A DNA stretch of 64,000 nucleotides, from contig JBAZJI010000001.1 of assembly GCA_041651395.1 (NCBI GenBank), forward strand, positions 763,920-827,919. The letters are read 5' to 3'. The position numbers and the translations under genes were made by a program. The notes below the pieces were generated by a model. It saw only the letters and a list, made by a program, of their open reading frames with translations, searched no databases and had not been told where the DNA came from. Source of the stretch: Minisyncoccota bacterium. GTDB taxonomy: Bacteria; Patescibacteriota; Minisyncoccia; Minisyncoccales; JAGOPM01. Each line of letters begins with the position of its first letter. Within the stretch, counting starts at the first letter, position 1. Of this stretch, positions 24,813 through 62,904 are shown in pieces.

Positions 24813-24842
24813 CTTTGGCGGACTTGATAGAAGGGATTCGAA

Positions 24843-24885
24843 GTTTATACTGGCCGAGCTAGCAAGCGAGGGCAGTAAATGCCTC
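24843..24885. repeat. 43-nt direct repeat, copy 1
   Basis: GTTTATACTGGCCGAGCTAGCAAGCGAGGGCAGTAAATGCCTC, identical to 24949-24991. Confidence 0.95.
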
Positions 24886-24948
24886 CCCTACATTAATTCA
24901 ACTGAGGGAAACGAATCCCAAATTCGAACTTGTCTACCGTCAGACAGG

Positions 24949-24991
24949 GTTTATACTGGCCGAGCTAGCAAGCGAGGGCAGTAAATGCCTC
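24949..24991. repeat. 43-nt direct repeat, copy 2
   Basis: Perfect copy of 24843-24885 (period 106 nt), 55 nt upstream of the SemiSWEET start codon. Confidence 0.95.
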
Positions 24992-34827: not shown

Positions 34828-34902
34828 GTATGGTTAAGAAATTGAAGGCGGAGACGGAGTAGAACCTTCGGCTCAATACAGGACATTCTTGTTTCTTTAA
34901 CT

Positions 34903-34932: not shown

Positions 34933-35310
34933 TTATTGTGTCAAATTAATTTGCGGGCCTCCAGTTGTTCCAGTGGCTGCTCCCTTTAATAGCACAAAAT
35001 TGACCAAGGCAAGCGCAACCAAAGCAACAATGATACCGATAACAGCCCAAGCAATTTGCTCTTTGGCCTTAGCGGCTTTAGTTGGGTCTCCCTGCGCCAC
35101 AACCATATCATAGCCAGACAAAACGATAATAATAATGGCAATGACAATGATTCCCCCGAATAAAAGATTCAAAACATTCCTAAGCCACCCCTCCAAAGTC
35201 ATACCAAAAGTATAGTCTGGCAAAGCGGCAAAGGCCGGGAGGGAAACAAGTATTGCGACCGTAGCTAATGACGCGGCTGCAATTATCTTTTTTTCTAATG
35301 AAGTGTTCAT
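34933..35310 (-). CDS. T4SS-pilin-like (TrbC/VirB2-type) small membrane protein, paralog 3
   Basis: 125 aa: signal peptide, 2 TM, and a conserved loop G.DP.KAAKAKEQI.WA..G shared with the two upstream paralogs. Confidence 0.6.
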   Translation of the reverse strand: MNTSLEKKIIAAASLATVAILVSLPAFAALPDYTFGMTLEGWLRNVLNLLFGGIIVIAIIIIVLSGYDMVVAQGDPTKAAKAKEQIAWAVIGIIVALVALALVNFVLLKGAATGTTGGPQINLTQ

Positions 35311-35404
35311 TTTTTGTATTTTTATTGTAAATACGACCTTTGCAATATGTTATGCTTAAATTATACCGGCCTCCAAGGATTGGCGCAAGCAAATAATTAA
35401 CAAC

Positions 35405-35755
35405 CTAATTAGTCTTGCCGGTCGCCAGCACCAAGAAAAAGAAACGGACAAGAGCCTCGGAAATCGCCATGGCCACTATGCCCCAAAGAGCATACTTTAT
35501 CAGATCCTTGCCTTTCTTGACGGCATCAGGATCAATTCCGGAATTAGAATTAACGAAATAAAACCCGGCAATAACAATCATAACGACCGCCAAGCATACG
35601 CCAATAATAAATAAAAAGTCGACTATCCCGATTACCAAAGCACCCCAAGTCTTGTATCCGAGCAGATCAGGCACATCGGCCCCGTAAACGATCCACGCAC
35701 TGGCCAGACCCAAAATAGCCAGAGCGGGCAATAACATTTGAAGTTTTTTATCCAT
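35405..35755 (-). CDS. T4SS-pilin-like (TrbC/VirB2-type) small membrane protein, paralog 2
   Basis: I used the start MDKKLQMLLPALA at 35755, because the ORF-track start overlaps the upstream gene. Motif GIDPDAVKKGKDLIKYALWG. Confidence 0.6.
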   Translation of the reverse strand: MDKKLQMLLPALAILGLASAWIVYGADVPDLLGYKTWGALVIGIVDFLFIIGVCLAVVMIVIAGFYFVNSNSGIDPDAVKKGKDLIKYALWGIVAMAISEALVRFFFLVLATGKTN

Positions 35756-35760
35756 AATAA

Positions 35761-36153
35761 TTAAAGTGAAGTTCCCGGCGGAGGCGCCTTGCCGGTGGTC
35801 AACATATAATAAACAAACCACCCGATGGCCTCAGCCCCTAAGATTATTAGAAGCCCAAATAAAGCATACTTTATCATATCTTTCCCCTTTTGTATGGCGT
35901 TGGGATCGATATTGGCGCCAAGAACAAAATAGTATCCGGACATAACAACTGTTGCGATGGCGATGAAGATCGCCAAAACGAACAAAAACTGCAGCATCCT
36001 TTTAAGCAAAGTCTGGAATTGATCCAAACCCCAAGGCGGTTTGACAACCACGCTACCCGCAGCACCCTCACCTTGAGCCAAGGCGCCAAGACTTAAAATG
36101 ATTCCAAAAATAACCAAGATACCCAGCAAAAAATTTTTTTGGCTATAGGTCAT
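35761..36153 (-). CDS. T4SS-pilin-like (TrbC/VirB2-type) small membrane protein, paralog 1
   Basis: I used the start MTYSQKNFLLG at 36153. Motif NIDPNAIQKGKDMIKYALFG. Confidence 0.6.
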   Translation of the reverse strand: MTYSQKNFLLGILVIFGIILSLGALAQGEGAAGSVVVKPPWGLDQFQTLLKRMLQFLFVLAIFIAIATVVMSGYYFVLGANIDPNAIQKGKDMIKYALFGLLIILGAEAIGWFVYYMLTTGKAPPPGTSL

Positions 36154-36154
36154 T

Positions 36155-36670
36155 TTAATTTTTTTGGAATAACATTGCAAAGTGGTATTGCCCAGCCTCC
36201 AAATGCCTTACAAATCGAAAGCCGGCCTGAATGGCTAATAGTTTGGCATCTTCAATACTGACAATCTCATTGCCCAAACCGATTTTTTGCACCCAATCAA
36301 TTATCACCAAAGATTCATCCGGGCCCAAAACTCGGTATGCTTCCTTGAGGCAAGAAATCTTGTCTTGCAATTGGAAAAGAACATTAACAAGAAAAACGTA
36401 ATCAAGTGAACCATTGGAAATGCCGGTCGAGCCGACTTTTTCCAAATCAGCTATAACGGTCTTAATATTGGAAAGATTTTCCGCTTTGGCTTGGGATTGC
36501 AAAACCGAGAGCGGCTCTTTTTGCAAATCAACGGCAAAAACTCGGCCCTTTTTGACCAAACGCGCTAAAGGGATGGTAAAGGCGCCACTGCCGCAGCCAA
36601 AATCGGCGCACTTCAATTCCTCGTTAAAATCCAATTGTTTAAGAATTTTCTCCGGGTTTACAAAGAGCAT
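36155..36670 (-). CDS. class I SAM-dependent methyltransferase
   Basis: Motif I DFGCGSG. 171 aa. Confidence 0.8.
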   Translation of the reverse strand: MLFVNPEKILKQLDFNEELKCADFGCGSGAFTIPLARLVKKGRVFAVDLQKEPLSVLQSQAKAENLSNIKTVIADLEKVGSTGISNGSLDYVFLVNVLFQLQDKISCLKEAYRVLGPDESLVIIDWVQKIGLGNEIVSIEDAKLLAIQAGFRFVRHLEAGQYHFAMLFQKN

Positions 36671-36745
36671 AGGTAAATAATTAAGAATTTATAATTCATA
36701 ATGCAGAATTAATTATGAATTCCGCATTCTAAATTCTGAATTAAC

Positions 36746-39235
36746 TTATACTGTCGTGATAGTAGCGGCCTTTTCCCCTTCTTCCAATTTCATTAGCCTC
36801 ACCCCTTGAGTGGTGCGTGATAGTTTGGGAACTGAAGAGAGGGCTAAACGGATAACTTGCCCTTTAATAGAAACAACAATCAGATCCTCTTCTTCTCCAG
36901 ATAAAATAGTGGCTGAGGCGACCGCACCGGTTTTGGGGGTCAAATTAAAAGCTTTGACGCCCGAGCCTCCCCTGCTCTGTAGCCGATACTCCTTAATATC
37001 GGTCTTCTTGCCGTAGCCGTTTTCCGAAACAAGCAAAACAAAATTATTTTTCGCGTCTTTCTTGACGACGCCTACCCCGACAATAATATCCTTATCCTTC
37101 AACCGCATGGCTGTAATGCCGGCAGCCTGCCTACCCATGGGGCGCACTTGCTTTTCTGGGAAGCGCACCGACATGCCATTTTTGGTGACAATCAACACCT
37201 CGTCATTTCCCGAGGTCTGCTTAACGGCACAAAGCGAATCGTCTTTTCTAAGCGTTAAGGCAATCAAGCCAGAGCGCCTGATATTCTGAAAATCAACCAA
37301 GGGAGATTTTTTGATTACACCATGCTTGGTAATCATCATCAGGAAATCTTTGCCTGACTTAATATCATCTTTGGTCAAGGCTAAAACAGCCATCACCTTC
37401 TCATTGGAAGAAATTTCCAAAAAGTTAGTTATGGCCCGGCCCTTCGAGCCTTTGCTGGCCTCAGGCACTTCGTAAGTGGGGATCCGGAAAACCCGCCCCG
37501 TATCAGTGAAAAACAAAAGTGAATCATGCGTATTGGCAGTCACGAAATGCTCGATGACATCATCACCGGACATTTTTACACCCGCACTGCCCTTACCGCC
37601 CCGATGCTGTAAGCGATAAGATTCCGGATTCATCCGCTTCACAAAACCCGTGGCCGTCATGGTGATGACCACATCTTCTTGCGGAATAAGATCCTCATCG
37701 GTCAGCTCATCGATTTTGCGTACCATGACTTTGGTACGTCGCTCGTCGGCAAACTGCTCCCTAAGCGTTTTTAACTCATCTTTCATGACCTCTTTGACCT
37801 TTTTAGGGTCTTTCAAAATATCGCCCAACTCTTTGATTTTGGCATGCAGGGCTTTAAGCTCTTCGTCAATTTTCTTCCTCTCCAATTTTGCTAAAGCCGC
37901 CAACTTGGTTTCCAAAATGGCATTAGCTTGGATCTCGTCAAGCTTGAAGCGTTTCATCAAATTCCTCTGAGCGTCAGCCCGATCGTCGGAGCGCCTAATT
38001 ATCGCAATCACCTCATCGATATCAGCCAAACATTTTGCCAAGCCTTCCAAGATATGAGCCCTCTGTCTGCATTTTTCCAAATCAAAAGCAATGCGCCTGC
38101 GGGTTACTATTTCCCGATGCTCGAGATAATGGGTCAAAACTTCCGCTAAAGATAAGACTTTGGGCTGAATGCCATTGACCAAAGCAAGCATATTAAGATG
38201 GTAATTCTTTTGCAGCCCAGAGTATTTATAGAATTGGTTCAAAACTTTCTGCGGAGGAATATCTTTCTGCAAATAAATGACAATCCTTACGCCTTCCTTG
38301 CCAGACTCATCCCTGATGTCGCGCACACCGATGACTTTTTTGTTTTCCACCAATTCGGCAAACTGCTCCACCAAGGAAGACTTTTCCGTTTCGTAGGGGA
38401 TCTCAGTAATTAAAATAATCGGCTTGCCCTGCTTGTCTTCTGTAATTTCCGCCTTGCCGCGGATCCGAATAGGGCCCTTGCCCTGAGAATAAGCAGCAAT
38501 GATTTCCTTCTTATCATAGATAATTCCCCCAGTCGGAAAATCAGGCCCTTGGACAAATTCAAATAAATCTTCGGTCGTCGCTTTCGGATGGTCGATTAAA
38601 TGGATAGAAGCATCGACAACCTCGCCTAAGTTGTGTGGCGGGATATTGGTCGCCATGCCCACGGCAATGCCCATGGCGCCGTTTAATAATAAGTTCGGCA
38701 ATAACGCCGGCAAAACAGTCGGCTCGCGCTTTGTACCGTCATAGTTATCGATAAAATCAACCGTGCCCCTGTTGATTTCATTTAGGGCTTGCTCGGCAAT
38801 TTTGGAAAGCTTAGCTTCCGTATACCTATAAGCAGCCGGCGGATCGCCATCAACTGAGCCGAAATTTCCCTGGCCAGTAACCAGCGGATAGCGATAAGAA
38901 AAGTCTTGCGCCATGCGCGCCATAGCCATATAAACCGATTGGTCTCCGTGCGGATGATATTTGGCAAGCACATCTCCGATTACCGCAGCGGATTTTTTGG
39001 TCTTCGCGCTGGAGTCTAAACCGATTTCGTACATGGAATACAAAATTCTCCTTTGTACAGGCTTCATTCCATCGCGCACATCAGGAAGCGCGCGCGAAAT
39101 AATAACTGACATCGCATAATCCAAATAGCTTTCTTTCATCTCATCAATAATTTCACGCGGCCGGACATTGCCCTTAACTATTTGGGACTGGATTGTCTGC
39201 TGTTTTTTTCCTTTTTCTTTTGGTGTTCTTGGCAT
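36746..39235 (-). CDS. gyrA: DNA gyrase subunit A
   Basis: 829 aa with [15 protein letters not shown], the active-site region [10 protein letters not shown], and C-terminal beta-pinwheel repeats. Confidence 0.97.
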
Positions 39236-44995: not shown

Positions 44996-45070
44996 GCGGG
45001 TGTCGTATAGTGGCTATTACACATCCTTGCCATGGATGAGACGAGGGTTCGATTCCCTTCACCCGCTCCA
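44996..45070 (+). tRNA. tRNA-Gly (anticodon GCC), CCA encoded
   Basis: Acceptor GCGGGTG/CACCCGC, anticodon stem CATCC/GGATG, loop TTGCCAT, T-arm GAGGG TTCGATT CCCTT, discriminator U. Confidence 0.9.
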
Positions 45071-45099
45071 AGAAAAAATGCCCCGCAAGGGGTGTTTTT
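45056..45099 (+). repeat. 44-nt direct repeat, copy 1 (tRNA-Gly 3' end plus its terminator)
   Basis: CCTTCACCCGCTCCAAGAAAAAATGCCCCGCAAGGGGTGTTTTT, identical to 45221-45264. Confidence 0.95.
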
Positions 45100-45118
45100 T
45101 GTTGGTTTGATTAGTGTT

Positions 45119-45264
45119 GAAGGGAATCGAAGGCGGAGCCGCGACTGGCGGCGAGCCGGGCCCTGAGGCAAAGTCACCAGACTTTGACCGAAGGGCGATT
45201 CTCCGCCGCAGGCGGACAGGCCTTCACCCGCTCCAAGAAAAAATGCCCCGCAAGGGGTGTTTTT
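45119..45264 (+). ncRNA. candidate structured RNA / tRNA-trailer module (uncharacterised)
   Basis: GC-rich and hairpin-dense: GGCGGAG 45132-38 with CTCCGCC 45201-07; CCGC/GCGG 45139-51; CAAAGTC/GACTTTG 45169-86. It ends in a copy of the tRNA-Gly 3' end plus an intrinsic terminator. There is no expression evidence. Confidence 0.3.
45221..45264 (+). repeat. 44-nt direct repeat, copy 2
   Basis: Perfect copy of 45056-45099, 165 nt downstream. Confidence 0.95.
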
Positions 45265-45332
45265 ATTGCAATAGGCCCCGCCGAAACATCCCCTCAAACC
45301 AACCCTTATTTTCCAAGGGTTTTTTAGGGTCA

Positions 45333-45389
45333 AAAAAGCCTTATTTTACGTGGTTTTTGCCGAAAAAGCCTTATTTTACAATGGTTTTT
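45333..45389 (+). repeat. tandem direct repeat (2 units, period 30) upstream of the 3D-domain gene
   Basis: AAAAAGCCTTATTTTACGTGGTTTTT followed by AAAAAGCCTTATTTTACAATGGTTTTT. Confidence 0.85.
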
Positions 45390-45471
45390 TGAAAATGACC
45401 GCTTGACAAAAGCCCAAAAATTTGCTAACATTATAGTATAATTTCGTCCGAAAGGATGATTTTTATTTATT

Positions 45472-45942
45472 ATGAGTTTACGCAGTATTATTACACTTTT
45501 GATTGTTTGCGCCGCAGCTATCTGCTTCGATCCCATGATGTTTATCACGGCATCAGAAAAAGATAATTACGCCGCCTCAACGAGCGAGTTAAGCCTGCCA
45601 AACTTCCCCATGCTACAGGGAAACTCTTTGTTTGCCTTAAGCCGCAAAGTAGTCAAAAAAATAAAAGTAACCGTAACGGCCTATTCCTCTACGGTCGAAG
45701 AATGTGATAATTCCCCTTTTGTGACCGCCACGGGTAATTATGTGCGCGAAGGTATTGTTGCCGCTAATTTCGTCCCTTTTGGAACTAGGATCAGGATCCC
45801 GGAAGTCTTCGGCGATAAAGAATTCATTGTTGATGACAGAATGCATCCGCGCAACAAGAAAAATATTGATATCTGGATGCCTTCCAAAGCGCTTGCCATG
45901 GAATTTGGAAAAAAATATACTTATATTGAAGTTTTAGACTGA
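45472..45942 (+). CDS. 3D (Asp-Asp-Asp) domain protein, MltA/RlpA-like double-psi beta-barrel, secreted
   Basis: Signal peptide, then VTVTAYSS....CDNSPFVTATG......GIVAAN..PFGTRIRIP..FG...F.V.DRM........IDIWM. Confidence 0.8.
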   Translation: MSLRSIITLLIVCAAAICFDPMMFITASEKDNYAASTSELSLPNFPMLQGNSLFALSRKVVKKIKVTVTAYSSTVEECDNSPFVTATGNYVREGIVAANFVPFGTRIRIPEVFGDKEFIVDDRMHPRNKKNIDIWMPSKALAMEFGKKYTYIEVLD

Positions 45943-52191: not shown

Positions 52192-52212
52192 TCTAGCGGA
52201 GGGGGTGGGATT
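52192..52212 (-). repeat. direct duplicate of the tRNA-Ser(CGA) 3' end
   Basis: TCTAGCGGAGGGGGTGGGATT is identical to 52309-52329, which covers the tRNA 3' T-stem, acceptor strand and 5 trailer nt. Period 117 nt. Confidence 0.95.
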
Positions 52213-52313
52213 CACTGCCAAATTCTGCTGAATTTGCCAGTACCTTGTTTCAAATCCCAGTCCATTTATTTCCGCTTTCAAGCAACTACGCCGGTCGCGC
52301 AGTTACTTTCTAG

Positions 52314-52400
52314 CGGAGGGGGTGGGATTTGAACCCACGATCGGGTTGCCCCGATACCGCATTTCGAGTGCGGCGCCTTCGGCCACTCAGCCACCCCTCC
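52314..52400 (-). tRNA. tRNA-Ser (anticodon CGA), no encoded CCA
   Basis: Reverse complement: GGAGGGG..CCGCA CTCGAAA TGCGG, long variable arm, GTGGG TTCAAAT CCCAC CCCCTCC G. Confidence 0.9.
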
Positions 52401-55883: not shown

Positions 55884-57313
55884 ACCAACAAATTTACGCC
55901 AGAGGTTCGACTATTTTACAAACAATGTTTGTTTTGTTTATCGCCATATTATTAATAGTCGGTTTTACAAGCTTTGCTACCTATAGCGTCCGGGCGGCAC
56001 GCTATCAAGAAAAACGTGAGCTGGCGCTGCAATTAGCTGAATCGGGCGTAAATTATTACCGCTGGCACCTCGCCCATGCTACAACTGATTACCAAGATGG
56101 CACGACAAGCACCGGCCCTTATATCCATCAAGTCAAAGATAAAAATGGCAATCTCTTGGGGACATTTTCATTGGAGATTAGCCCGGCAGCCACTGGTTCC
56201 AGCATTGTCAACGTTCAATCAACCGGCCAACCAACCAATGAAAGCCTAATTAAAAGAAAAGTTAAGGCGGTTTTGGCCATCCCTTCCTTTTCGCAATACG
56301 CAGTGGCGGCCAATGCCAATTTACGCTTCGGTTCAGGTACGGAAACTTATGGCCCCATACACTCCAACGGCGGAATACGATTTGACGCCGTTGCGCATGG
56401 GATAATCACTTCAGCAGTTGCCTCTTATAATGATCCTGATCACTTCGGAGGGAATGAATTTGGCGTACATACCCACACCTCGCCGATTGATCCACTGCCA
56501 CCTAATAACGTGCCCAACCGCTCGGATGTTTTTATGGCCGGAAGAAAATTTCCTGTGCCGATTTTGGATTTTCCCGGCCTAACTGGAGATTTGGGTAATC
56601 TTAAAACAATTGCCAATTCCACTAGTGGAAAATATTTTGCCCATAGCGGAAGCCTTGGATATCATATCGTCCTTAAAAATAATGGGACCTATGATATCTA
56701 CAAAGTTAACCGGTTGGAAAATGCCTCGGGTGGCTGCAGTAATGAATTAGGACAAGATGGTTGGGGCACTTGGAGCATCAAAAGTACTAACGGCGAAGAA
56801 TACATCAATAATTATGCTTATCCTTCTAATGGGATAATTTTTGTCGAGGATAACCTTTGGATTGACGGCCAGGTTAATAATAATCGACTTACGATTGCGG
56901 CTGCCCGATTCCCCGATACTACCTCTACGCGCACCAGCATCACCATTAATCAAAACCTTACTTACACCTATTATGACGGGCGCGATGTTGTCGGGCTTAT
57001 TGCTCAAAAAAATGTTAATGTTGGGCTGTTTAGCAATAATGATCTGAAGATTGATGCTGCGGCTATTGCCCAATATGGCCGCGTGGGGCGTTATTATTAT
57101 GGCAGCGGCTGCGGGCAACATAATAAAAACCGGCTAGAACTCGTCGGCATGATTGGAACCTTTGAGCGCTATGGATTTGCCTACACCGATGGCACTGGCT
57201 ATAAATATCGTGACCTTTATTATGACTCCAACCTAATGTATGCCCCTCCCCCCCATTTTCCTTTGGCGGCTGACCACTATCAAATTATCTCCTGGGAAGA
57301 ACTCACTAATTAA
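55880..57313 (+). CDS. PilX-like pilus assembly protein (large minor pilin)
   Basis: RGSTILQTMFVLFIAILLIVGF hydrophobic N-terminus in the PilX_N style. 477 aa. ATGA overlap with the upstream pilin gene. Confidence 0.65.
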   Translation: MNQQIYARGSTILQTMFVLFIAILLIVGFTSFATYSVRAARYQEKRELALQLAESGVNYYRWHLAHATTDYQDGTTSTGPYIHQVKDKNGNLLGTFSLEISPAATGSSIVNVQSTGQPTNESLIKRKVKAVLAIPSFSQYAVAANANLRFGSGTETYGPIHSNGGIRFDAVAHGIITSAVASYNDPDHFGGNEFGVHTHTSPIDPLPPNNVPNRSDVFMAGRKFPVPILDFPGLTGDLGNLKTIANSTSGKYFAHSGSLGYHIVLKNNGTYDIYKVNRLENASGGCSNELGQDGWGTWSIKSTNGEEYINNYAYPSNGIIFVEDNLWIDGQVNNNRLTIAAARFPDTTSTRTSITINQNLTYTYYDGRDVVGLIAQKNVNVGLFSNNDLKIDAAAIAQYGRVGRYYYGSGCGQHNKNRLELVGMIGTFERYGFAYTDGTGYKYRDLYYDSNLMYAPPPHFPLAADHYQIISWEELTN

Positions 57314-57317
57314 AGAC

Positions 57318-57360
57318 AGGAAATAAAAAAGGAGTAAAAATTACTCCTTTTTTATTTCCT
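57318..57360. terminator. 20-bp perfect hairpin, bidirectional terminator
   Basis: AGGAAATAAAAAAGGAGTAA AAA TTACTCCTTTTTTATTTCCT, between the pilX-like stop and tRNA-Ala. Confidence 0.85.
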
Positions 57361-57367
57361 CAAACTG

Positions 57368-57440
57368 TGGACCCAACCGGACTTGAACCGGTCGCCTCAT
57401 CCATGCCATGGATGCGCTCTACCAGATGAGCTATGGGCCC
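57368..57440 (-). tRNA. tRNA-Ala (anticodon GGC)
   Basis: Reverse complement: GGGCCCA..CATCC ATGGCAT GGATG..TGGGTCC A. The G3:U70 identity pair is present. Confidence 0.9.
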
Positions 57441-57467
57441 AAAATCATCCTAAACAAGGCTCTGGTG

Positions 57468-57539
57468 TGCCCTCAGAGGGAATCGAACCCCCATCTTTTC
57501 CTTAGGACGGAATTGCTCTATCCATTGAGCTATGAGGGC
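57468..57539 (-). tRNA. tRNA-Arg (anticodon CCU)
   Basis: Reverse complement: GCCCTCA TA GCTC AATGGATA GAGC A ATTCC GTCCTAA GGAAA .. GGGGG TTCGATT CCCTC TGAGGGC A. The anticodon stem has one A-A mismatch. Confidence 0.75.
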
Positions 57540-57611
57540 TTATTTTTGCCTCTCCTCTGACAAAAAGAGAATAGCATTTTTGGACAAAAATGACAAGTGT
57601 GTTATTTTTCT

Positions 57612-57641
57612 TTGCCTTACTCAAACAAAGCATGCTACAAT
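57612..57641 (+). promoter_or_regulatory. candidate sigma-70 promoter of the htrA-like gene
   Basis: TTGCCT, 18 nt, TACAAT, ending 13 nt before the ATG at 57654. Confidence 0.4.
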
Positions 57642-57653
57642 ATATAAGGAAAC

Positions 57654-58682
57654 ATGACTCGTAAAACACCAATAACCCAAATAGCGAAAAAAGTGTGCCC
57701 AGGAGCCATTACTATTGTGGCTACCAAAGATCTCCCCTCTTTAGAGGAGTTCTACGCTTTAGCTTTTGAAGGGAAAAGCATTAGCTTGCCTAAGGCCAGC
57801 AATGAAAAGAAAGAACCGACGAAAGTTGGAGGCGGATCAGGTTTTATTGTTTCTGCCGATGGCTTCGTAATTACCTGCAACCACGTCGTGCAAGATCCGG
57901 AATGCGAATATACGGTAGTCATTAGCCCAGAGAAAAAATATAAAGCAGAAGTTTTGGCTCGCGATCCTTTGGTTGATTTAGCTATTCTTAAAATTGACGG
58001 AAGAGATTTGCCAGTAGTACCCATGGGTGATTCTGACACCATCGAATTAGGGGAAAATGTTTTAGCTGTAGGTAATAGTTTAGGAGAATTCGATGATACG
58101 ATATCTATGGGTATTGTTTCCGGCCTCTCCCGTCGCATTACAGCTTACGCTGGAATACACGCCGGAGCAGCTAATTTAGGTGGCCTTATCCAGACCGATG
58201 CCGCCATTAATCCCGGAAACTCCGGAGGCTGTTTGGTAAATATGGAGGGAGAAGCTATCGGCATTAATACGGCGGTTGTTATGGGGGCCCAAAACATCGG
58301 TTTTGCTATTCCGATTAATTTGGCCAAAAATATGATTGTCGAGGTTAAAAAATTCGGCAAAATCAAAAGACCATATCTTGGCTTGCGCTATTTTGTCCTT
58401 AACGAAACAATCGCTAAACAAAATAATTTGCCAGTCAACAATGGCGCCATTATTGTGCGTGAAAGGCTAGGCGAACCGGCCGTTGCTCCCTTTTCCCCTG
58501 CCGATAAAGCCGGCTTAAAGGAATTCGATATCATTACCGAATGCGATGGGGAGAAGATTACTGAACAAAACACGCTTGGTGACGTTTTACAGCGCCACGA
58601 AATACACGATGAAATAATTTTTACCCTTATCCGCAGCAATAAGGAAATAAAAATAAATATTAAGCTGGAAGAAAAAATTTGA
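57654..58682 (+). CDS. HtrA/DegP-family serine protease (trypsin-like domain plus PDZ)
   Basis: Catalytic blocks TCNHV, DLAILK and GNSGGCLVN, with a C-terminal PDZ-like region. Confidence 0.9.
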   Translation: MTRKTPITQIAKKVCPGAITIVATKDLPSLEEFYALAFEGKSISLPKASNEKKEPTKVGGGSGFIVSADGFVITCNHVVQDPECEYTVVISPEKKYKAEVLARDPLVDLAILKIDGRDLPVVPMGDSDTIELGENVLAVGNSLGEFDDTISMGIVSGLSRRITAYAGIHAGAANLGGLIQTDAAINPGNSGGCLVNMEGEAIGINTAVVMGAQNIGFAIPINLAKNMIVEVKKFGKIKRPYLGLRYFVLNETIAKQNNLPVNNGAIIVRERLGEPAVAPFSPADKAGLKEFDIITECDGEKITEQNTLGDVLQRHEIHDEIIFTLIRSNKEIKINIKLEEKI

Positions 58683-58696
58683 ATCCCATTAGATAT

Positions 58697-58720
58697 AAAA
58701 ACACGCCTAAGCGTGTTTTT
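58697..58720 (+). terminator. terminator after the htrA-like gene
   Basis: AAAAACACGC CTAA GCGTGTTTTT. Confidence 0.8.
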
Positions 58721-58723
58721 ATA

Positions 58724-58744
58724 TTGGGGTAGCTAACGGGAATC
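58724..58744 (-). repeat. degenerate direct duplicate of the tRNA-His 3' end
   Basis: TTGGGGTAGCTAACGGGAATC compared with TTGGGGTGGCTAACGGGATTC at 58891-58911 (19/21 match). Period 167 nt. Confidence 0.85.
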
Positions 58745-58864
58745 TCACGTCGTCCGCCAGACGGCGGACTCTTTCAAAACCCCCGGTTTTGAATAATTTC
58801 CAATACGGGGAGGATGAGGATGTCATCCTCCCCAACCCCCTCCTTTTCAAATCCCGTTGGTAAC

Positions 58865-58888
58865 AAAAAACCTCCTCAGGGAGGTTTT
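58865..58888 (-). terminator. terminator after tRNA-His
   Basis: CCTCC TCAG GGAGG flanked by A6 and T4 tracts. Confidence 0.75.
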
Positions 58889-58891
58889 CTT

Positions 58892-58966
58892 TGGGGTGGC
58901 TAACGGGATTCGAACCCGTGCTAAGAGCTCCACAAACTCTTGTGCTGCCGCTACACCATAGCCACC
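58892..58966 (-). tRNA. tRNA-His (anticodon GUG) with encoded G-1 and CCA
   Basis: Reverse complement: G-GTGGCTA..AGAGT TTGTGGA GCTCT..ACGGG TTCGAAT CCCGT TAGCCAC C CCA. G-1 pairs with C73. Confidence 0.9.
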
Positions 58967-58988
58967 ATAAATATTCTAATTTCCCCTG

Positions 58989-59060
58989 TGTCCTCGGCAG
59001 GAATCGAACCTGCATCACCAGCTTAGAAGGCTAGAGTTCTATCCATTGAACTACGAGGAC
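58989..59060 (-). tRNA. tRNA-Arg (anticodon UCU)
   Basis: Reverse complement: GTCCTCG TA GTTC AATGGATA GAAC T CTAGC CTTCTAA GCTGG .. GCAGG TTCGATT CCTGC CGAGGAC A. Confidence 0.9.
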
Positions 59061-59137
59061 TAGATAAGAGATTGAACCCGCCTCCGGGATTTCAAATACT
59101 CAAATATTATACTCAAAATCACAATAATATCAAGCCA

Positions 59138-59530
59138 TTACTGGAGCAAAGGCTTATTTTCTTTAGTGCTGCTGGCCGGTTTGGCAGAGGAATCTTTGCC
59201 TTTAATGACCTCACTTGAAGTGGGAGCACTTTCCTTTTTTGTCTCCAAAAAGAAAGGATTGGGCAACTCCGGAGTGGAGGTAGAAAGATATTTCTCGTTC
59301 CTTGCCACTTCCTGTTTTTGCAGGTCCTCCAACACTTCTTTATTAATTTTTACCTGCGAAAAATTACCGCCGTTTGAGCTATTGATATCGAGAAAAATAG
59401 AACGGTACCAAAGGCAAATCGAAAATAACAAGAATATGATAAAAAACAATTTTATCCAAAATATTCTTTCGCGCATTACTCGAAAAATAGGGGCAAAAAA
59501 ATTCTTGAGGTTGCTAAATCCTATCTTCAT
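59138..59530 (-). CDS. membrane-anchored hypothetical protein at the PilP position of the pilMNO operon
   Basis: 130 aa with one TM and a Ser/Lys-rich tail. Function inferred from position only. Confidence 0.4.
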   Translation of the reverse strand: MKIGFSNLKNFFAPIFRVMRERIFWIKLFFIIFLLFSICLWYRSIFLDINSSNGGNFSQVKINKEVLEDLQKQEVARNEKYLSTSTPELPNPFFLETKKESAPTSSEVIKGKDSSAKPASSTKENKPLLQ

Positions 59531-59531
59531 A

Positions 59532-60029
59532 TTATTTAGTCATAACCGCTAATTTGAAATTAAGGCTCATTTGGTCGTTTGAAGCATTGTATTGTGCCGA
59601 CAAATCAGAAACTTCTATCAGCCAAGGGGCATTTTCCAAATGATAGACAAAATGCAAACAATTTTGCCAAGGCCCGATACAGCTCATGGCTAAGACCAAA
59701 GGACCCGTCGGAGGAGAGGCAACGGAATGCCTGACATCAACACTGTTGTTTACTTCCTCATCGTTGATAAATTTTAGGAAATTTCGCGGATCGCGCGAGT
59801 CGACAAATTGGTTGCCGATGGTCGCAAAATCGGTTTTATATTTTTTGAGCTCCAAATCTTTTTCTTTTAACGAAATTTCCTTATTTTTGAGCTGCGCTAC
59901 TTCCCCCTTAACCGATTTAATCTCTTTATGTATGGCAGACACTTTTACTATCCCCCAAAATGCCAAACCGATTAAGGCAAACAATAATAAACCAGAAAAT
60001 ATTAATTTAAGCGGAGCGCCTTTGGACAT
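59532..60029 (-). CDS. pilO: PilO-like type IV pilus assembly protein
   Basis: N-terminal TM plus a coiled coil (KSVKGEVAQLKNKEISLKEKDLELKK), then a small alpha/beta domain. Operon position after pilN. Confidence 0.6.
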   Translation of the reverse strand: MSKGAPLKLIFSGLLLFALIGLAFWGIVKVSAIHKEIKSVKGEVAQLKNKEISLKEKDLELKKYKTDFATIGNQFVDSRDPRNFLKFINDEEVNNSVDVRHSVASPPTGPLVLAMSCIGPWQNCLHFVYHLENAPWLIEVSDLSAQYNASNDQMSLNFKLAVMTK

Positions 60030-60040
60030 ATCTGTAACTA

Positions 60041-60595
60041 TTATAATTTTTTATATTCAAAAGAAATCTCAAAATTTATATCCTGATCCTGCAAAAAAAG
60101 CGTATCGGGAATAACCAATTTGCTTATCTCCTTGTCCCCTTCCAATTTGCCGCGGAAATCAAAGAGCGAAGAATTGTCTTCAGCTAAACCGGCTAATTTT
60201 ATTTGGTACGATAAACCGTCTTTATTTTTTTTGGCGGTAATATTGGAAATTTTTATTCCGCTGACCAAATTGTCAGAAATTTTTCTTAGTATCCCCACTT
60301 GACTGGTCATTCCCTGCTTGAATTTAGCAACTGCCAAGGCCTGATCATTAAGCTCTTTAATTTGCGCGTCCAATTTAACTACCTCCTCGCCCTGCCGATA
60401 ACCCTGTAGAGTAGCTTTTTGAAAATTCAATTCCGCCCAAAGGAAAGAATAAATCAAGCCAAGGCCGACTAAAAAACAAATAAGAAGCAAAAGAAAATAC
60501 CCCTCCACTCCGAAGATGAGGCGCTGTTGGGCCTGCTGTTTCAATTCTTTTTTGAATTTTTCCGGGATTAAATTAATCATATTTTTCTTTCTCAA
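60041..60595 (-). CDS. pilN: PilN-like type IV pilus assembly protein
   Basis: MINLIPEKFKK N-terminal motif (an alternative start at 60580), TM, coiled coil. Confidence 0.65.
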   Translation of the reverse strand: MRKKNMINLIPEKFKKELKQQAQQRLIFGVEGYFLLLLICFLVGLGLIYSFLWAELNFQKATLQGYRQGEEVVKLDAQIKELNDQALAVAKFKQGMTSQVGILRKISDNLVSGIKISNITAKKNKDGLSYQIKLAGLAEDNSSLFDFRGKLEGDKEISKLVIPDTLFLQDQDINFEISFEYKKL

Positions 60596-61664
60596 TATTT
60601 AATCCTCTCATAGCTAGCCCCAAGACAGTCGCTAAGCCTACTGATTGTGCATAATCAATTGTCGGTATTTGCCGATGTTTTTCGGAGATAATATTAACCC
60701 AAGGATTCCCGATCCCAACCGGAATGCAAAGCCGGCCGGAGATAAATGCCTCAATGCCTCGCAAGATTGCCCCTTCTCCGCATAAAATTGCCCGCATTTT
60801 TTCGCTCTCCTCGAGACAATTCTCAGCCTTTCCGTAATAAAAATCCGTATACTTTTTTACCTGCCGGGCTAAATTTTCAATAATTGGCTCAATCGCAGAA
60901 GCCACTTTTTTAGCCTCTTCATTTTCCCTCAAGAGACCATACTTGTTCTTTAGCTCGAGGGCCTTTTTCAAATCGACCCCCAGTTCCGTTTGGATGGCTT
61001 TTTGCATTTTTAGCATTGATTCGGCTATTGTGCCGCCAAATCTCAAATTACCATCGTGGAAAATCGAAAAATTTGTGCGGGTATTGCCGATATCTATTAT
61101 TAAAATTGTCTCCTGAGGGGCCAAAGAAGGAACCAAGGCCCGGGCCGCAGCTTGATTTTCTGTTTCCATAATTACGGGCATCAAACCCGCCCCTTCAATT
61201 ACTGAAGCATAGTCGTCGACAATATTGCGAGGCGTTGCCACAATAAGAGCCTCAGTGAACCTCCCCTGAAGGTCTTGAAAAATTTCACAATCGATATAAA
61301 CATCCCTTAAAGGCATGGGGATATGATTTTCCGCCTCAAATATTGCCGCCTTTTTGGCGGCCGCTGAATCCATTTTTGGCAGCTTAATTATCCTTAAAAA
61401 TGTCTCCTCCTCGGGCAAAGCCACGGCTACATATTTACTCCGAAGCTTATCACCATTTAAGCTAGCACATAAATTTTTTATAGCGACCGTCAGATCAGCT
61501 TGCCGCTTAATCTCCCCGTCGGAAATTATTCCAGGAATAATATCAACCTTACCCCAAGTAGCCAAATACAGGGCATTGCCCCTTCTGGCCAATTTAGCCA
61601 GCTTGATGGAATCCTCAGAAATATCCAGCCCGAAAGCTTCATTTTGTCCGAAAATATTAGCCAT
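60573..61664 (-). CDS. pilM: type IV pilus assembly protein PilM (actin-like ATPase fold)
   Basis: 363 aa with FGLDISEDSIKLAKL and IDIGNTRTNF phosphate-binding motifs. Confidence 0.85.
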   Translation of the reverse strand: MANIFGQNEAFGLDISEDSIKLAKLARRGNALYLATWGKVDIIPGIISDGEIKRQADLTVAIKNLCASLNGDKLRSKYVAVALPEEETFLRIIKLPKMDSAAAKKAAIFEAENHIPMPLRDVYIDCEIFQDLQGRFTEALIVATPRNIVDDYASVIEGAGLMPVIMETENQAAARALVPSLAPQETILIIDIGNTRTNFSIFHDGNLRFGGTIAESMLKMQKAIQTELGVDLKKALELKNKYGLLRENEEAKKVASAIEPIIENLARQVKKYTDFYYGKAENCLEESEKMRAILCGEGAILRGIEAFISGRLCIPVGIGNPWVNIISEKHRQIPTIDYAQSVGLATVLGLAMRGLNIEKEKYD

Positions 61665-61668
61665 ATTA

Positions 61669-62904
61669 TTATAAGTTTCCTAATGTCGAATAAATTGGCG
61701 AGAACAGCGCCGAGGCAAAAAAACCGACCGCAATAGCCACCACAATCATCAAAAGCGGCTCAATTATGGTAGTTAAACTATCCGCCGCCCGAGAAACCTC
61801 TTCTTCGTAAAATTCCGACAATTTACGCAAAATATCGCTGGTCATACCGGTCTCCTCCCCTATGCCGATCATTTGGACAACCGACAAAGTATATAAATTT
61901 TTATATGGCTGAAGTGCCTCTGATAACTTTTTGCCCTTTTGAATTTTTTCAATCGCCTCACCAAGGGACTTGGCATAATAATAATTAGTCGTAGCGCTAG
62001 ATAAAATTTGTAACGACTGCACTACAGGAACCCCCGATTGCATTAAAACGCTAAAATTACCGATAATACTAGCAATATTGCTCTTGCGCACCAAGGTACC
62101 GATTACCGGCAATTTGATGGAAAGATTATCAAAGAATCTCTTGCCCGGTTTTGTTCTTGCAAATGATGTAATGGCAAAGATAATCAAGGCTATTACCCCG
62201 AGGAACACGGCTACATTTATCGGCTGCTTAAAATAATCTCCGATGGCCACCAAAGCTTGGGTAGTTACCGGGAGATCTTTTAACTCTACACCCATATCTA
62301 CAAACATTTTTAATAAATTAGGCACGACAAAAATCATCAAACCAATACCCATAATGAGCATCACACTGACAATAACGCTAGGATAAGTCATTGCGCCCTT
62401 AATCTTGGAGGTAATCCTATATTCCTTTTCCATCTGATAAGCCAAATCTTTCAACACCCTATCCAAGCCTCCGGTCTTCTCTCCGATAGAAACCATTCCG
62501 CAAAAGAAATCAGAAAAAACTTTAGGGTACTTCCTAGCTGTTTCAGAAAAACTTTTGCCCTTTATAATTTCATCCTTAACGCTATAAATTATTTTTTGTA
62601 ATTGGGTATTTTCGGTTTGGGCGGCAATTATTTCTAAAGCTTGAGGCAAGCTAATACCCGCCGCAACCATAATCTGCAAATTTCTGACAAACATCAGCTT
62701 ATCAACAAAACCAATTCCTCCAAAAGTAGGTATTTTAATTTCCACATTCAGGCCACCCCTCTTCTTGGTGGCAATTTCTGAACTGACCATTACTAATCCT
62801 TCTTGCTTTAGAATTCTGGCCAAATCATATTCATCAGCCGCCTCCCTATTTCCAGAAACATCCTGACCAACTTTATCTATTGCTCGATATACATATTGTG
62901 TCAT
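61669..62904 (-). CDS. pilC: type IV pilus platform protein PilC (GspF/T2SSF family)
   Basis: 411 aa with two T2SSF repeats, 3 TM, and the conserved ...GEETG..D..L..L motif present twice. Confidence 0.9.
   Translation of the reverse strand: MTQYVYRAIDKVGQDVSGNREAADEYDLARILKQEGLVMVSSEIATKKRGGLNVEIKIPTFGGIGFVDKLMFVRNLQIMVAAGISLPQALEIIAAQTENTQLQKIIYSVKDEIIKGKSFSETARKYPKVFSDFFCGMVSIGEKTGGLDRVLKDLAYQMEKEYRITSKIKGAMTYPSVIVSVMLIMGIGLMIFVVPNLLKMFVDMGVELKDLPVTTQALVAIGDYFKQPINVAVFLGVIALIIFAITSFARTKPGKRFFDNLSIKLPVIGTLVRKSNIASIIGNFSVLMQSGVPVVQSLQILSSATTNYYYAKSLGEAIEKIQKGKKLSEALQPYKNLYTLSVVQMIGIGEETGMTSDILRKLSEFYEEEVSRAADSLTTIIEPLLMIVVAIAVGFFASALFSPIYSTLGNL

Follow-up and report, generated by a model that had tools for sequence, protein, structure and literature searches.

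A candidate ORF-less insertion element in the 3' flank of tRNA-His on a Paceibacteria-like CPR chromosome

The region directly downstream of the tRNA-His gene (58678-58891) in the analysed 64-kb stretch of DNA (hereinafter referred to as the window) could well be the footprint of a small, hairpin-rich insertion element that lacks ORFs, inserts at the T-loop of tRNA genes and is in part subject to selection, a reading that we hold tentatively. Judged by sequence comparison, the hairpins and conserved flanks of this His module form a family, named X, which is not in Rfam and does not appear to have been described so far. The X family most likely inhabits the 3' half of tRNA genes in Paceibacteria-type CPR bacteria, and the window itself is part of a Patescibacteria (CPR, Paceibacteria-like) chromosome. 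In the CPR/Patescibacteria, genomes are tiny and each tRNA gene is present as a single copy; their mobile DNA is, to our knowledge, poorly characterised. If the insertion reading is true, a gene-less element that repeatedly enters tRNA genes, which stay intact, would be a new route for selfish DNA into the most conserved sequence of a genome. It would also explain why tRNA loci of these metagenome-assembled genomes contain pseudo-tRNA fragments and why assemblies break there, and X would be a marker of between-lineage recombination.

The features of the locus are listed below; coordinates are given on the plus strand, and sequences are read on the minus strand.

57654-58682, plus strand: HtrA-like ORF, convergent, its TGA stop overlapped by A'2
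58678-58692, minus strand: A'2, second inverted T-arm copy, CTAATGGGATTCAAA, 13/15
58693-58724, minus strand: T2, second terminator, perfect 14-bp palindrome ATATAAAAACACGC/GCGTGTTTTTATAT
58724-58744, minus strand: A2, distal degenerate direct copy of the tRNA-His T-loop-to-CCA segment, 19/21 (against 58891-58911)
58752-58769, minus strand: B3, GTCCGCC GTCT GGCGGAC, right-end hairpin of X
58773-58793, minus strand: B2, TTCAAAACC GGG GGTTTTGAA, then AAAGAG; the 7-bp hairpin at 58775-58791 extends to 9 bp
58794-58845, minus strand: 5' half of X, consisting of conserved 5' flank AAGGAGGGGGTT, hp1 and conserved 3' flank GTATTGGAAATTA
58807-58833, minus strand: hp1, perfect 11-bp hairpin
58846-58858, minus strand: A'1, inverted copy of the T-loop and T-stem 3' strand, AACGGGATTTGAA, 12/13, left junction of X
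58865-58888, minus strand: T1, terminator hairpin AAAACCTCC/GGAGGTTTT with T-run, core CCTCC/GGAGG, A-tract and T-tract
58892-58914, minus strand: A1, proximal repeat copy, the T-loop-to-CCA segment of tRNA-His
58892-58965, minus strand: tRNA-His (GUG), CCA encoded (ARAGORN; Rfam RF00005, 62.2 bits)

All features listed in the initial annotation (T1, A'1, the three hairpins and the 19/21 copy) were present and above chance; T2 and A'2 had been overlooked there. The inverted and direct His copies each beat 200/200 shuffles (p = 0/200), and the segment 58693-58862 folds at -75.6 kcal/mol (z = -7.0 against dinucleotide shuffles). The pairing proposed to close the whole domain also held, AACGGGA (58735-41) being complementary to TCCCGTT (58852-58), and related copies at other sites preserve this closing stem. 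T1 forms the centre of a long imperfect palindrome built from the tRNA 3' end and the inverted copy. A simple terminator scan missed it; the case for a functional hairpin comes from two relatives in which the stem has changed with full compensation, to CCTCT/AGAGG in L001 and to CACGC/GCGTG in L072. A'1 is perfect in the same relatives (16/16 in L001, GCTAACGGGATTCGAA; 15/15 in L072, CTAACGGGATTCGAA). B3 always lies immediately upstream of a displaced tRNA 3' fragment, and B3-type hairpins also precede the direct copy in the Gly module of the window and in L009, L079, L077-Phe, L092 and L097. A2 is interpreted as a displaced older tRNA 3' end. The stem of T2 (ACACGC/GCGTGT) is identical to that of the single terminator after tRNA-His in L072. 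Promoter-like sites were absent inside the module (58678-58891), the sole strong one being located at 59104-59133, upstream of the tRNA operon.

A search pattern derived from the His module of the window and the Gly-tcc module of L009 retrieved three metagenome contigs, in which every element lay directly 3' of a tRNA: two tandem X units after tRNA-Gln-ctg in L079 and L081, and one unit after tRNA-Gly-tcc in L080. Distant CPR genomes thus also carry X, 3' of tRNA-Gly-tcc and tRNA-Gln; its stems covary and its arms match the local tRNA. The HtrA proteins of genomes bearing X at the His, Gly-tcc and Gln sites are only ~54% identical. The order of parts is colinear: inverted T-arm, GAGGGGGTCGGG-hp1-CCGTGTAGGAA, an optional GC hairpin, B2, AAAG, B3 and a direct tRNA 3' fragment. 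Across 247 kb of CPR DNA, the motif GGGGTCGG-stem-CCGTGTAGGAA gave a single match outside such modules, a false positive in coding sequence. In hp1, 8/8 pairs are kept, six of them with double changes, and B2 has homologues with compensatory changes (GAAACC/GGTTTC in L009, GAACC/GGTTC in L079). RNAalifold of the X copies gave 29 pairs, 11 with compensatory changes; in the named X structure 90.6% of cells are paired and 10 pairs carry double changes, which was matched by 0/500 shuffles. A covariance model of X scored full copies at 100-111 bits and truncated copies at 44-54 bits, and a search of ~297 kb of CPR DNA with this model revealed neither further copies nor a comparable score elsewhere. 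The initial annotation had suggested that the architecture alone, and not the sequence, was the selected or generated feature. The His interior instead has relatives in sequence at other tRNAs and in other genomes, which share its single-stranded motifs and show covariation in the stems, so that sequence counts as well as architecture.

The arms of X differ by site, following the adjacent tRNA (His, Gly or Gln). The distal copies of the window His module and of the second Gln unit in L079 both read GTGAGATTCC, whereas their own tRNAs have GAATCC, so the arms look element-borne. L092 has three tRNA-Arg 3' ends that have been displaced and differ in allele type, each behind a hairpin of the TCCGCC..GGCGGA type. 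Together with the two units in L079, these point to repeated hits at one tRNA and tandem accretion.

Downstream of tRNA-His, X is present in the window, in L001 (HtrA 96% identical; the same in four further metagenomes) and in L072 (HtrA 90%). It is missing at the syntenic tRNA-His of L088/90/91 (HtrA 71%), after tRNA-His of L087 (HtrA 74%, not syntenic) and after tRNA-Gln in L094-L097, which are relatives of L079 at 81-88% NAD kinase identity. This patchy distribution among relatives indicates gain by insertion. At tRNA-Gln, the gene in L096/L097 is followed by TCTGAAGAAAAT, which in L079 comes after the distal fragment; the intervening block includes a terminator not duplicated from nearby DNA. 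As the distal fragment of L079 abuts the ancestral flank, the block is an insertion, and it came with a terminator of its own.

Conservation of the hairpins in relatives, on which the initial annotation had made its proposal depend, was divided. The 5' half with hp1 is kept in both L001 and L072, whereas B3 and the tail are lost in both and B2 is lost in L001 or cut mid-hairpin in L072. L001 corresponds to the window sequence minus the segment between two TTTGAAT repeats, one of which lies in A'2, and ends just before B2; X in L072 is cut off in the middle of B2. The window version is the complete form. The 5' half was found in six independent assemblies, so the His structure is not the assembly artefact that had been considered possible. 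The inverted copy and hp1 are identical at 57/60 nt between the window and L072, between which third-codon identity is 0.48 and synonymous sites are saturated. Strong retention of A'1 and hp1 at this divergence shows that at least part of X does something.

An insertion of the following kind would produce this arrangement. The incoming DNA would carry the element body (inverted T-arm copy, hp1, B2 and B3) together with a terminator of its own, T1, and a tRNA-His-like segment extending from T-loop to 3' end. It would recombine with the chromosomal tRNA-His inside the T-loop, around GTTC|GA. The tRNA-His gene would retain its 5' part and receive the proximal 3'-segment copy as its new end. The older 3' segment (58725-58744) would move ~150 nt downstream together with the older terminator T2 and an inverted copy belonging to it. 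An excised circle would join B3-GACGTGA to GAATCCCGTTAGCC-T1. The three hairpins would be conserved parts of the element, which would meet tRNA-like sequence at the inverted copy on one side and at the degenerate duplicate on the other. Purifying selection has since maintained the 5' half (inverted copy and hp1), and sister lineages have lost the 3' half by deletion. Catalysis may be due to a recombinase or transposase supplied in trans, and the crossover may fall in the T-loop by analogy with tRNA integrases of the T-loop class. The palindromes (tRNA end, T1 and inverted copy; inverted copy, X and direct copy) may act as folded single-strand sites.

Known integrative elements that target tRNA genes resemble X in several respects. 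The direct copies of the modules begin at G57/A58 of the T-loop, continue past the gene end into flanking bases and measure 17-44 nt, as is typical of attL/attR repeats where elements integrate into tRNA T-loops (PMC1762012; PMC9897764). In mycobacteriophage Ms6, the integrase crossover lies in the T-loop (PMC1762012), and the product of tRNA-targeting integration is generally one complete and one partial tRNA gene (PMC9897764). At His, one copy of the repeated 3' segment likewise completes the gene and the other is partial (19/21). The intact tRNA, the distal partial copy beside the ancestral flank, the tandem displaced 3' ends and the variable presence in relatives are further shared traits. 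A distal copy at the ancestral flank together with empty relatives was found for L079 against L096/L097; for His the corresponding evidence is indirect and consists of the relatives without X at 71-74% HtrA identity. In contrast, tRNA-targeting integrative elements measure kilobases and X measures 100-400 nt and carries neither an integrase nor any other ORF. X also differs from them in its inverted T-arm copy, for which classical tyrosine-integrase att sites have no role, and in its conserved covarying hairpins.

Several observations count against the insertion reading. No integrase, transposase or homing-endonuclease gene was found beside any window tRNA. Pfam scans of 29 window ORFs, including those flanking modules, gave no recombinase or integrase in or beside the insert, and the 147-nt insert is too short for an ORF. 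No protein partner consistently co-occurred with X, and neither an excised circle nor a clean empty site was seen among the assembled sequences compared. With 100-170 nt, the X unit is far smaller than any known integrative element. Since the tRNA matched by the arms changes from site to site, the element would need to acquire arms anew with every change of target, and a single X copy in 64 kb with 17 tRNAs gives no sign of a recent burst. The 57/60 conservation is unlike that of a dead selfish remnant and points to a host- or RNA-level function beyond the element model.

Some process independent of sequence must also be involved, since the Gly and Ser modules of the window share the architecture without X sequence. 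An inverted T-arm copy was found 33-55 nt downstream of 6 of the 17 window tRNAs (p<=0.01; ~0.2 expected) and upstream of none of the 17. A direct copy of the tRNA 3' end is additionally present at three of them, His, Gly-gcc and Ser-cga. The shared architecture proposed for His, Gly and Ser-CGA therefore recurs at Gly-gcc and Ser-cga, and partly at Ser-gct, Leu-tag and Leu-taa. The direct repeat is 21/21 at Ser-cga and 44/44 at Gly-gcc, where it takes in the terminator. The module interiors had been called unrelated in sequence. Within the window this is essentially so, as the covariance model built from the His element detected neither the Gly nor the Ser module and found one X copy in the 64 kb, but a TCCGCC..GGCGGAC hairpin directly before the direct copy is common to His and Gly. 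The Ser-cga module is missing in L072, where an ORF begins immediately 3' of the tRNA. No distant direct repeats marking a kilobase-scale island were detected within the window. The L072 and L073 contigs both break at the Gly-gcc repeat.

The shared architecture could also have arisen by local replication error, hairpin template switching having copied the tRNA 3' end first inverted and then direct, with GC-rich hairpins growing in the loops and no mobile element involved. Tandem inversion duplications and short-range template switches characteristically leave a direct-inverted-direct order with a hairpin at each junction (PMC4689423, PMC8794818), and palindromes extending existing terminator stems are a further shared trait. 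At His, Ser-cga, Gly-gcc and L079, a single long imperfect palindrome comprises the tRNA end, T1 and the inverted copy, its centre being the terminator loop. The perfect Gly-gcc repeat with its terminator, the unrelated interiors of the window modules, the similar folding energies of the sense and antisense strands and the lack of a recombinase among the window ORFs fit the same process. Template switching nevertheless fails to explain how one interior (hp1 flanks, B2 and B3) came to lie at His, Gly-tcc and Gln in genomes with HtrA ~54% identical, or how the L079 insert gained a terminator and ~300 nt that have no local source. Inverted copying of the tRNA body does not account for the interiors, which show no similarity to it. 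A pure tandem inversion duplication was rejected on these grounds, since hp1, B2, B3 and T1 have no local source by BLAST and have homologues at other tRNA loci in unrelated genomes; the arms alone fit. As a full account of the His module, template switching is unlikely.

That the module is a functional structured RNA on the tRNA strand seems distinctly unlikely. Such an RNA would be a 3'-trailer or read-through product, its closing stem mimicking an acceptor/T-arm minihelix with a 3' tail, and would serve in tRNA processing or as a decoy or regulator. The covarying stems, the single-stranded motifs kept across distant genomes and the 57/60 identity of the inverted copy and hp1 despite saturated synonymous divergence are consistent with it, as are the G-U pairs of four copies (16 on the tRNA-sense strand against 6 on the antisense strand) and the terminator after the distal copy in the window, the Gly module and L079. 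On the other hand, the whole block lies beyond T1, which is itself conserved by compensatory change. The two closest relatives have lost B2, B3, the closing 3' strand and the CCA tail and yet conserve the remainder, the element is missing from most relatives and most tRNAs, and the module lacks a promoter-like site. It has no Rfam match even at E<10: in a comparison with known RNA families (Rfam 15; tmRNA, Y-RNA-like, omega-RNA/HEARO, ribozymes), only tRNA passed, the others scoring at most 31 bits against thresholds of at least 50. The distal copies comprise gene and flanking bases and have no CCA at genes that do not encode it (Ser-cga ...CCGC+TAGA; L009 Gly-tcc ...GCTC+AA); they are thus DNA copies of the locus and not CCA-tuned tRNA mimics. 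For the same reason, there is little to support the suggestion that tRNA 3'-end enzymes act on the CCA-ending tail. A SINE-like retro-copy of mature tRNA was likewise rejected, as the copies include TAGA, AA or a whole terminator.

Scars from the repair of repeated homing-endonuclease (HNH, GIY-YIG) breaks in tRNA genes, made of partial duplications and filler and possibly selected because the recognition site is destroyed, are very unlikely to explain the module: no HNH or GIY-YIG ORF lies near a module in the 64-kb window, homing is homologous repair that by itself makes no target duplications, and the conserved X sequence is left unexplained. What favours such scars is the position of HNH ORFs between tRNA-Arg-tct and tRNA-His in L080 and L014 and beside tRNA-Leu-taa in L072, and of GIY-YIG ORFs directly adjoining a tRNA or module in L009/L080, L077, L092 and L095, the gene in L092 lying between a 5' pseudo-tRNA-Arg fragment and the intact gene. 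T4 SegB is a precedent, being a homing endonuclease active in a tRNA cluster that drives segmental amplification (PMC2330249, PMC13096335).

Among other small elements, MITEs, REPINs and Rickettsia palindromic elements are like X in being small, non-coding and hairpin-rich, with inverted-repeat arms, covarying structure and an intergenic location near terminators. The arms of X, however, copy the neighbouring tRNA and vary by site, its location is strictly at tRNA 3' flanks, and a long tRNA-derived direct repeat replaces the short fixed target duplication. A MITE or REPIN, which requires many near-identical copies and fixed terminal inverted repeats, was rejected on the single copy in 64 kb and the varying arms. 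The integron attC site and the CTXphi attP hairpin share with X the inverted and direct core copies around a variable hairpin region and an architecture conserved above sequence, and a folded stem of X would mimic a double-stranded target as theirs does. X differs in its tRNA-derived core and its lack of cassette ORFs, and neither IntI nor Xer was found among the window ORFs. Identity with attC was rejected because GTTAGCC/GTTAGCT misfits GTTRRRY (R'/R'' GTTRRRY/RYYYAAC), the arms are T-arm sequence and no integrase was found. By analogy with attC and CTXphi, X might be a kind of miniature mobile DNA in CPR that carries no ORF and has not been described before. It would home to the universally conserved T-loop of tRNA genes and supply a new tRNA 3' end and terminator, with hairpin-folded single strands whose stems mimic the tRNA gene duplex serving as its sites, and its 5' half would have been domesticated as a conserved tRNA-flank element; we regard this broader proposal as rather unlikely.

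The remaining candidates were set aside more directly. TnpB/IscB omega-RNA, retron ncRNA, group II intron remnants, IS91 or IS200/IS605 ends and a tmRNA-like domain each lacked the defining protein, motif or Rfam match. Phage origin was not supported, as megablast of 56000-62000 against 50,697 phage records gave no match, and scans of viral contigs with the X patterns gave chance matches only, none near a tRNA. Nothing specific was found in the literature on CPR tRNA-flank elements. A small protein was also rejected: the 35-codon ORF starting in hp1 is not conserved, having 18 codons in L001 and no ATG in L009, and the substitutions in this ORF are non-synonymous and located in the hairpin loop.

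The module 3' of tRNA-His (58892-58965, minus strand) was found to contain all six features of the initial annotation, on the minus strand and at the positions given there, together with a second terminator and a second inverted T-arm copy that had not been reported. The order was tRNA(A1)-T1-A'1-(hp1-B2-B3)-A2-T2-A'2, where A1 is the proximal copy of the tRNA sequence from T-loop to 3' end.

Features of the tRNA-His module
58865-58888, minus strand: T1, terminator, previously listed
58846-58858, minus strand: A'1, inverted T-arm copy, 12/13
58807-58833, minus strand: hp1, perfect 11-bp hairpin
58775-58791, minus strand: B2, hairpin, 9 bp when extended to 58773-58793
58752-58769, minus strand: B3, hairpin
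58724-58744, minus strand: A2, direct copy of the tRNA 3' end with CCA, 19/21
58693-58724, minus strand: T2, second terminator, perfect 14-bp palindrome directly after A2, newly found
58678-58692, minus strand: A'2, second inverted T-arm copy, 13/15, overlapping the stop codon of the convergent HtrA-like protease gene, newly found

The inverted copy and the direct copy were each better than 200/200 shuffles, and the folding z of the region was -7.0. An assembly artefact, one of the refuting outcomes named in the initial annotation, was excluded by independent assemblies. The tRNA-Arg-tct/His operon has a strong promoter-like site (TTGATA-16-TATAAT, 59106-59133), and its leader carries, directly behind this site, a T-arm-like sequence in permuted order, TTTGAAATCCCGGAGGCGGGTTCAATC (59070-59096, minus strand), which was identical in the close relative L001.

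The search of related genomes proposed in the initial annotation identified elements with the His hairpins at tRNA-Gly-tcc and tRNA-Gln-ctg, hereinafter referred to as family X, and their stems covaried. In L009, a CPR genome with HtrA 54% identical to that of the window, tRNA-Gly-tcc had the same layout as tRNA-His, and the two interiors were colinear (alignment z = 3.1, p ~0.007). A pattern search for B2+B3 detected three metagenome contigs, and in each of them the element adjoined the 3' end of a tRNA. L080 was a near-identical copy of L009; L079 and L081 harbored two tandem units after tRNA-Gln-ctg, each closed by a degenerate tRNA-Gln 3' fragment. The X consensus starts with an inverted T-arm, GAGGGGGTCGGG, hp1 (G-rich stem), CCGTGTAGGAA, and an optional variable GC hairpin, followed by TTCAgAACC-NNN-GGTTcTGAAAG (B2), AGTCCGCC-NNNN-GGCGGAC (B3), and a direct T-loop-to-3'-end fragment. 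RNAalifold gave 29 pairs, 11 of which had compensatory changes; the stem in which the inverted copy pairs with the direct copy and closes the element was among them. In the three core helices, pairing held for 90.6% of cells and 10 pairs were doubly changed, and neither any of 500 shuffles nor any slid register came close to the observed pairing. With the covariance model, the four full copies reached 100-111 bits and L079 unit 1 reached 71, against 54 for the truncated L072 copy and 44 for the truncated L001 copy; no further comparable match was found in ~297 kb of CPR sequence.

In L001 (HtrA 96% identical; the same sequence was present in four further metagenome assemblies), the tRNA-His flank comprised T1, its stem altered with compensation, an inverted copy perfect at 16/16, and hp1, and then directly the HtrA stop. 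L001 corresponds to the window except for a missing stretch bounded by two TTTGAAT repeats, a sign of microhomology deletion. In L072 (HtrA 90%, IF-2 88%), the terminator stem was differently compensated, being equal to the T2 stem of the window, and was followed by a perfect inverted copy, hp1, an additional GC hairpin, half of B2, and then a hemerythrin gene. At other loci, X regularly includes B2, B3, and the distal fragment; the copy in the window is therefore complete and those of the relatives are truncated. The syntenic tRNA-His of L088, L090, and L091 (HtrA 71%) and the non-syntenic one of L087 (HtrA 74%) had a terminator only, with a short GC hairpin in addition in L088. The absence of X in these relatives and its presence in the closer ones place its gain in the ancestor shared by L001, L072, and the window. 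Differences at tRNA boundaries were also seen among strains of the L001 species: compared with L083, L084 had different DNA right after tRNA-Ala-ggc, and L085 had tRNA-Arg-ccg in place of Arg-tct and an extra tRNA-Arg-gcg upstream.

After tRNA-Gln, X was absent in the relatives of L079 (L094 to L097; NAD kinase 81-88% identical), which had the same tRNA-Gln. TCTGAAGAAAAT, which directly follows tRNA-Gln in L096 and L097, follows the distal fragment of unit 2 in L079, where ~390 nt thus separate the T-loop from the ancestral 3' end. This block (a new terminator, inverted copy, unit 1, 3' fragment, and unit 2) is an insertion bearing sequence without a local source. Related scars were also found. 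L092 (1700-2474) contained a 5' pseudo-tRNA-Arg fragment, a GIY-YIG ORF, an intact tRNA-Arg-tct, and three displaced tRNA-Arg 3' ends that differ in allele type. A TCCGCC..GGCGGA-type hairpin stood directly before every displaced end, in one case nested with a CCTGCCTGCC..GGCAGG (CCTGCC..GGCAGG) hairpin. L077 contained a tRNA-Phe 3' copy with a TCCGCC..GGCGGA-type hairpin in the T-loop and a perfect 32-nt duplication of the tRNA-Cys 3' end. In L097 (1-102), a pseudo-tRNA-Gln, inside which the contig ends, was located 25 nt past the intact gene, its T-loop split exactly between C56 and G57 (GGTTC / two 15-nt GC hairpins / GAATCC); L096, with an identical NAD kinase protein, lacked it. The recurrent junction across the scars was in the T-loop, around GTTC/GA.

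X shares several hallmarks of tRNA-gene insertion by site-specific recombination (PMC1762012, PMC9897764), namely a direct repeat from T-loop to 3' end with the tRNA intact, a distal fragment adjoining the ancestral flank, tandem accretion, and patchy presence among relatives. Unlike such insertions, the insert is only 100-400 nt without an ORF, opens with an inverted T-arm copy, and is made of conserved covarying hairpins. Based on these hallmarks and the small ORF-less hairpin body, we tentatively assign the His module to a family of insertion elements without ORFs that would target tRNA T-loops and supply a replacement 3' end and terminator, giving this somewhat less than an even chance. 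The two palindromes may serve as folded single-strand sites imitating the tRNA-gene duplex. X is best filed as tRNA-targeting insertional DNA, for which neither a corresponding Rfam family nor a like element in the literature searched was found.

The window (G+C ~43%) contained 17 scattered tRNA genes, with type IV pilus components and the HtrA-like protease as gene neighbours. The nearest public contigs were Patescibacteria/CPR MAGs labelled Paceibacterota, Staskawiczbacteria, or Saccharibacteria, and no phage match to the window was found. On the downstream side, at 33-55 nt, an inverted copy of T-loop and T-stem 3' strand was detected for six tRNAs out of 17 (His, Gly-gcc, Ser-gct, Ser-cga, Leu-tag, and Leu-taa; each p<=0.01); upstream, there was none. 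Direct 3'-end copies at 100-150 nt followed His, Gly-gcc, and Ser-cga. In each case, tRNA 3' end, terminator, and inverted copy combined into one long imperfect palindrome with the terminator loop at its centre; in the inverted arm, the T-loop/T-stem block was perfect or near-perfect and AT-rich sequence replaced the acceptor part. The Gly-gcc module (45056-45264, plus strand) had a 44-nt perfect direct repeat (45056-45099 and 45221-45264) of the tRNA 3' end and whole terminator; between the repeats were an inverted T-arm copy matching at 14/14 (45118-45131) and, at 45202-45216, a TCCGCC..GGCGGA hairpin. Contigs L072 and L073, from one relative, ended exactly at the Gly-gcc terminator, which suggests a repeat-induced assembly break. 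The Ser-cga module (52192-52329, minus strand) comprised a perfect direct repeat of 21 nt, four of them flanking bases, together with two hairpins and an inverted T-arm copy (52249-52259); in L072, the entire module was missing and an ORF began right after the tRNA. The initial annotation had proposed that architecture, and not sequence, is the selected or generated feature. The layout was indeed common to the Gly and Ser modules, which lack X sequence and were undetected by the covariance model; the proposal did not hold for the His interior, which has relatives elsewhere. This shared architecture favours a local replication mechanism such as template switching, whose products the long palindromes resemble (PMC8794818, PMC4689423). 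We consider it unlikely that such a mechanism alone lies behind the modules; that it had a part in forming at least the arms is probable.

At third codon positions, identity to L072 was 0.48 for HtrA and IF-2 alike, indicating saturated synonymous sites; between the window and L001, the value was 0.71. Over the ~60 nt that start with the inverted copy, span hp1, and end at GGAAA, the window and L072 were identical at 57/60 positions. In T1, between the tRNA and this block, 4/5 stem pairs were changed and fully compensated; T1 is thus under structure-only constraint, and the inverted copy and hp1 are under sequence constraint. Other tRNA flanks, e.g., that of tRNA-Ala, could not be aligned across these genomes. 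In four copies, G-U pairs numbered 16 in tRNA sense and 6 in antisense, with folding energies alike on both strands. An RNA or other host-level function would account for this conservation, the covariation, and the G-U bias, and is rated a little lower than template switching. Its tRNA-mimic version is argued against by the position of X past the conserved terminator and by the fact that the nearest relatives have lost both the closing strand and the CCA tail.

HNH and GIY-YIG genes adjoined tRNAs in several related genomes, and no recombinase or nuclease gene was found near any module in the window; that the modules are homing-endonuclease repair scars is improbable.

HNH ORFs were located between tRNA-Arg-tct and tRNA-His in L080 (2640-3125) and L014 (4660-5211) and beside tRNA-Leu-taa in L072 (12133-12636); the window has a 22-nt Arg-tct/His spacer and no HNH ORF at Leu-taa. 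An inverted 3'-end copy (34847-34867) was also present at tRNA-Leu-tag, and this tRNA is closely followed by a large ORF and TrbC/VirB2-type T4SS pilin ORFs (34933-39235, minus strand), which may represent a conjugation-like gene cluster; no distal tRNA repeat was found within the window. At tRNA-Ser-gct (24816-24991, plus strand), the downstream inverted 3'-end copy had its C5 run swapped for AT-rich sequence; after it, the two copies of a perfect 43-nt direct repeat (24843-24885, 24949-24991) enclose scrambled T-arm-like pieces. Three ~33-nt tandem copies of GCCTTATTTTAC..GGTTTTT (45304-45400, plus strand), upstream of an ORF at 45472, were kept in L072/L073. Further, an AT-rich AATTCATAATTTAGAATGCAGAATT-like motif, palindromic in the window (36678-36743), recurred in relatives (L072 1802-1923 and L077 12121-12229), in their tRNA spacers.
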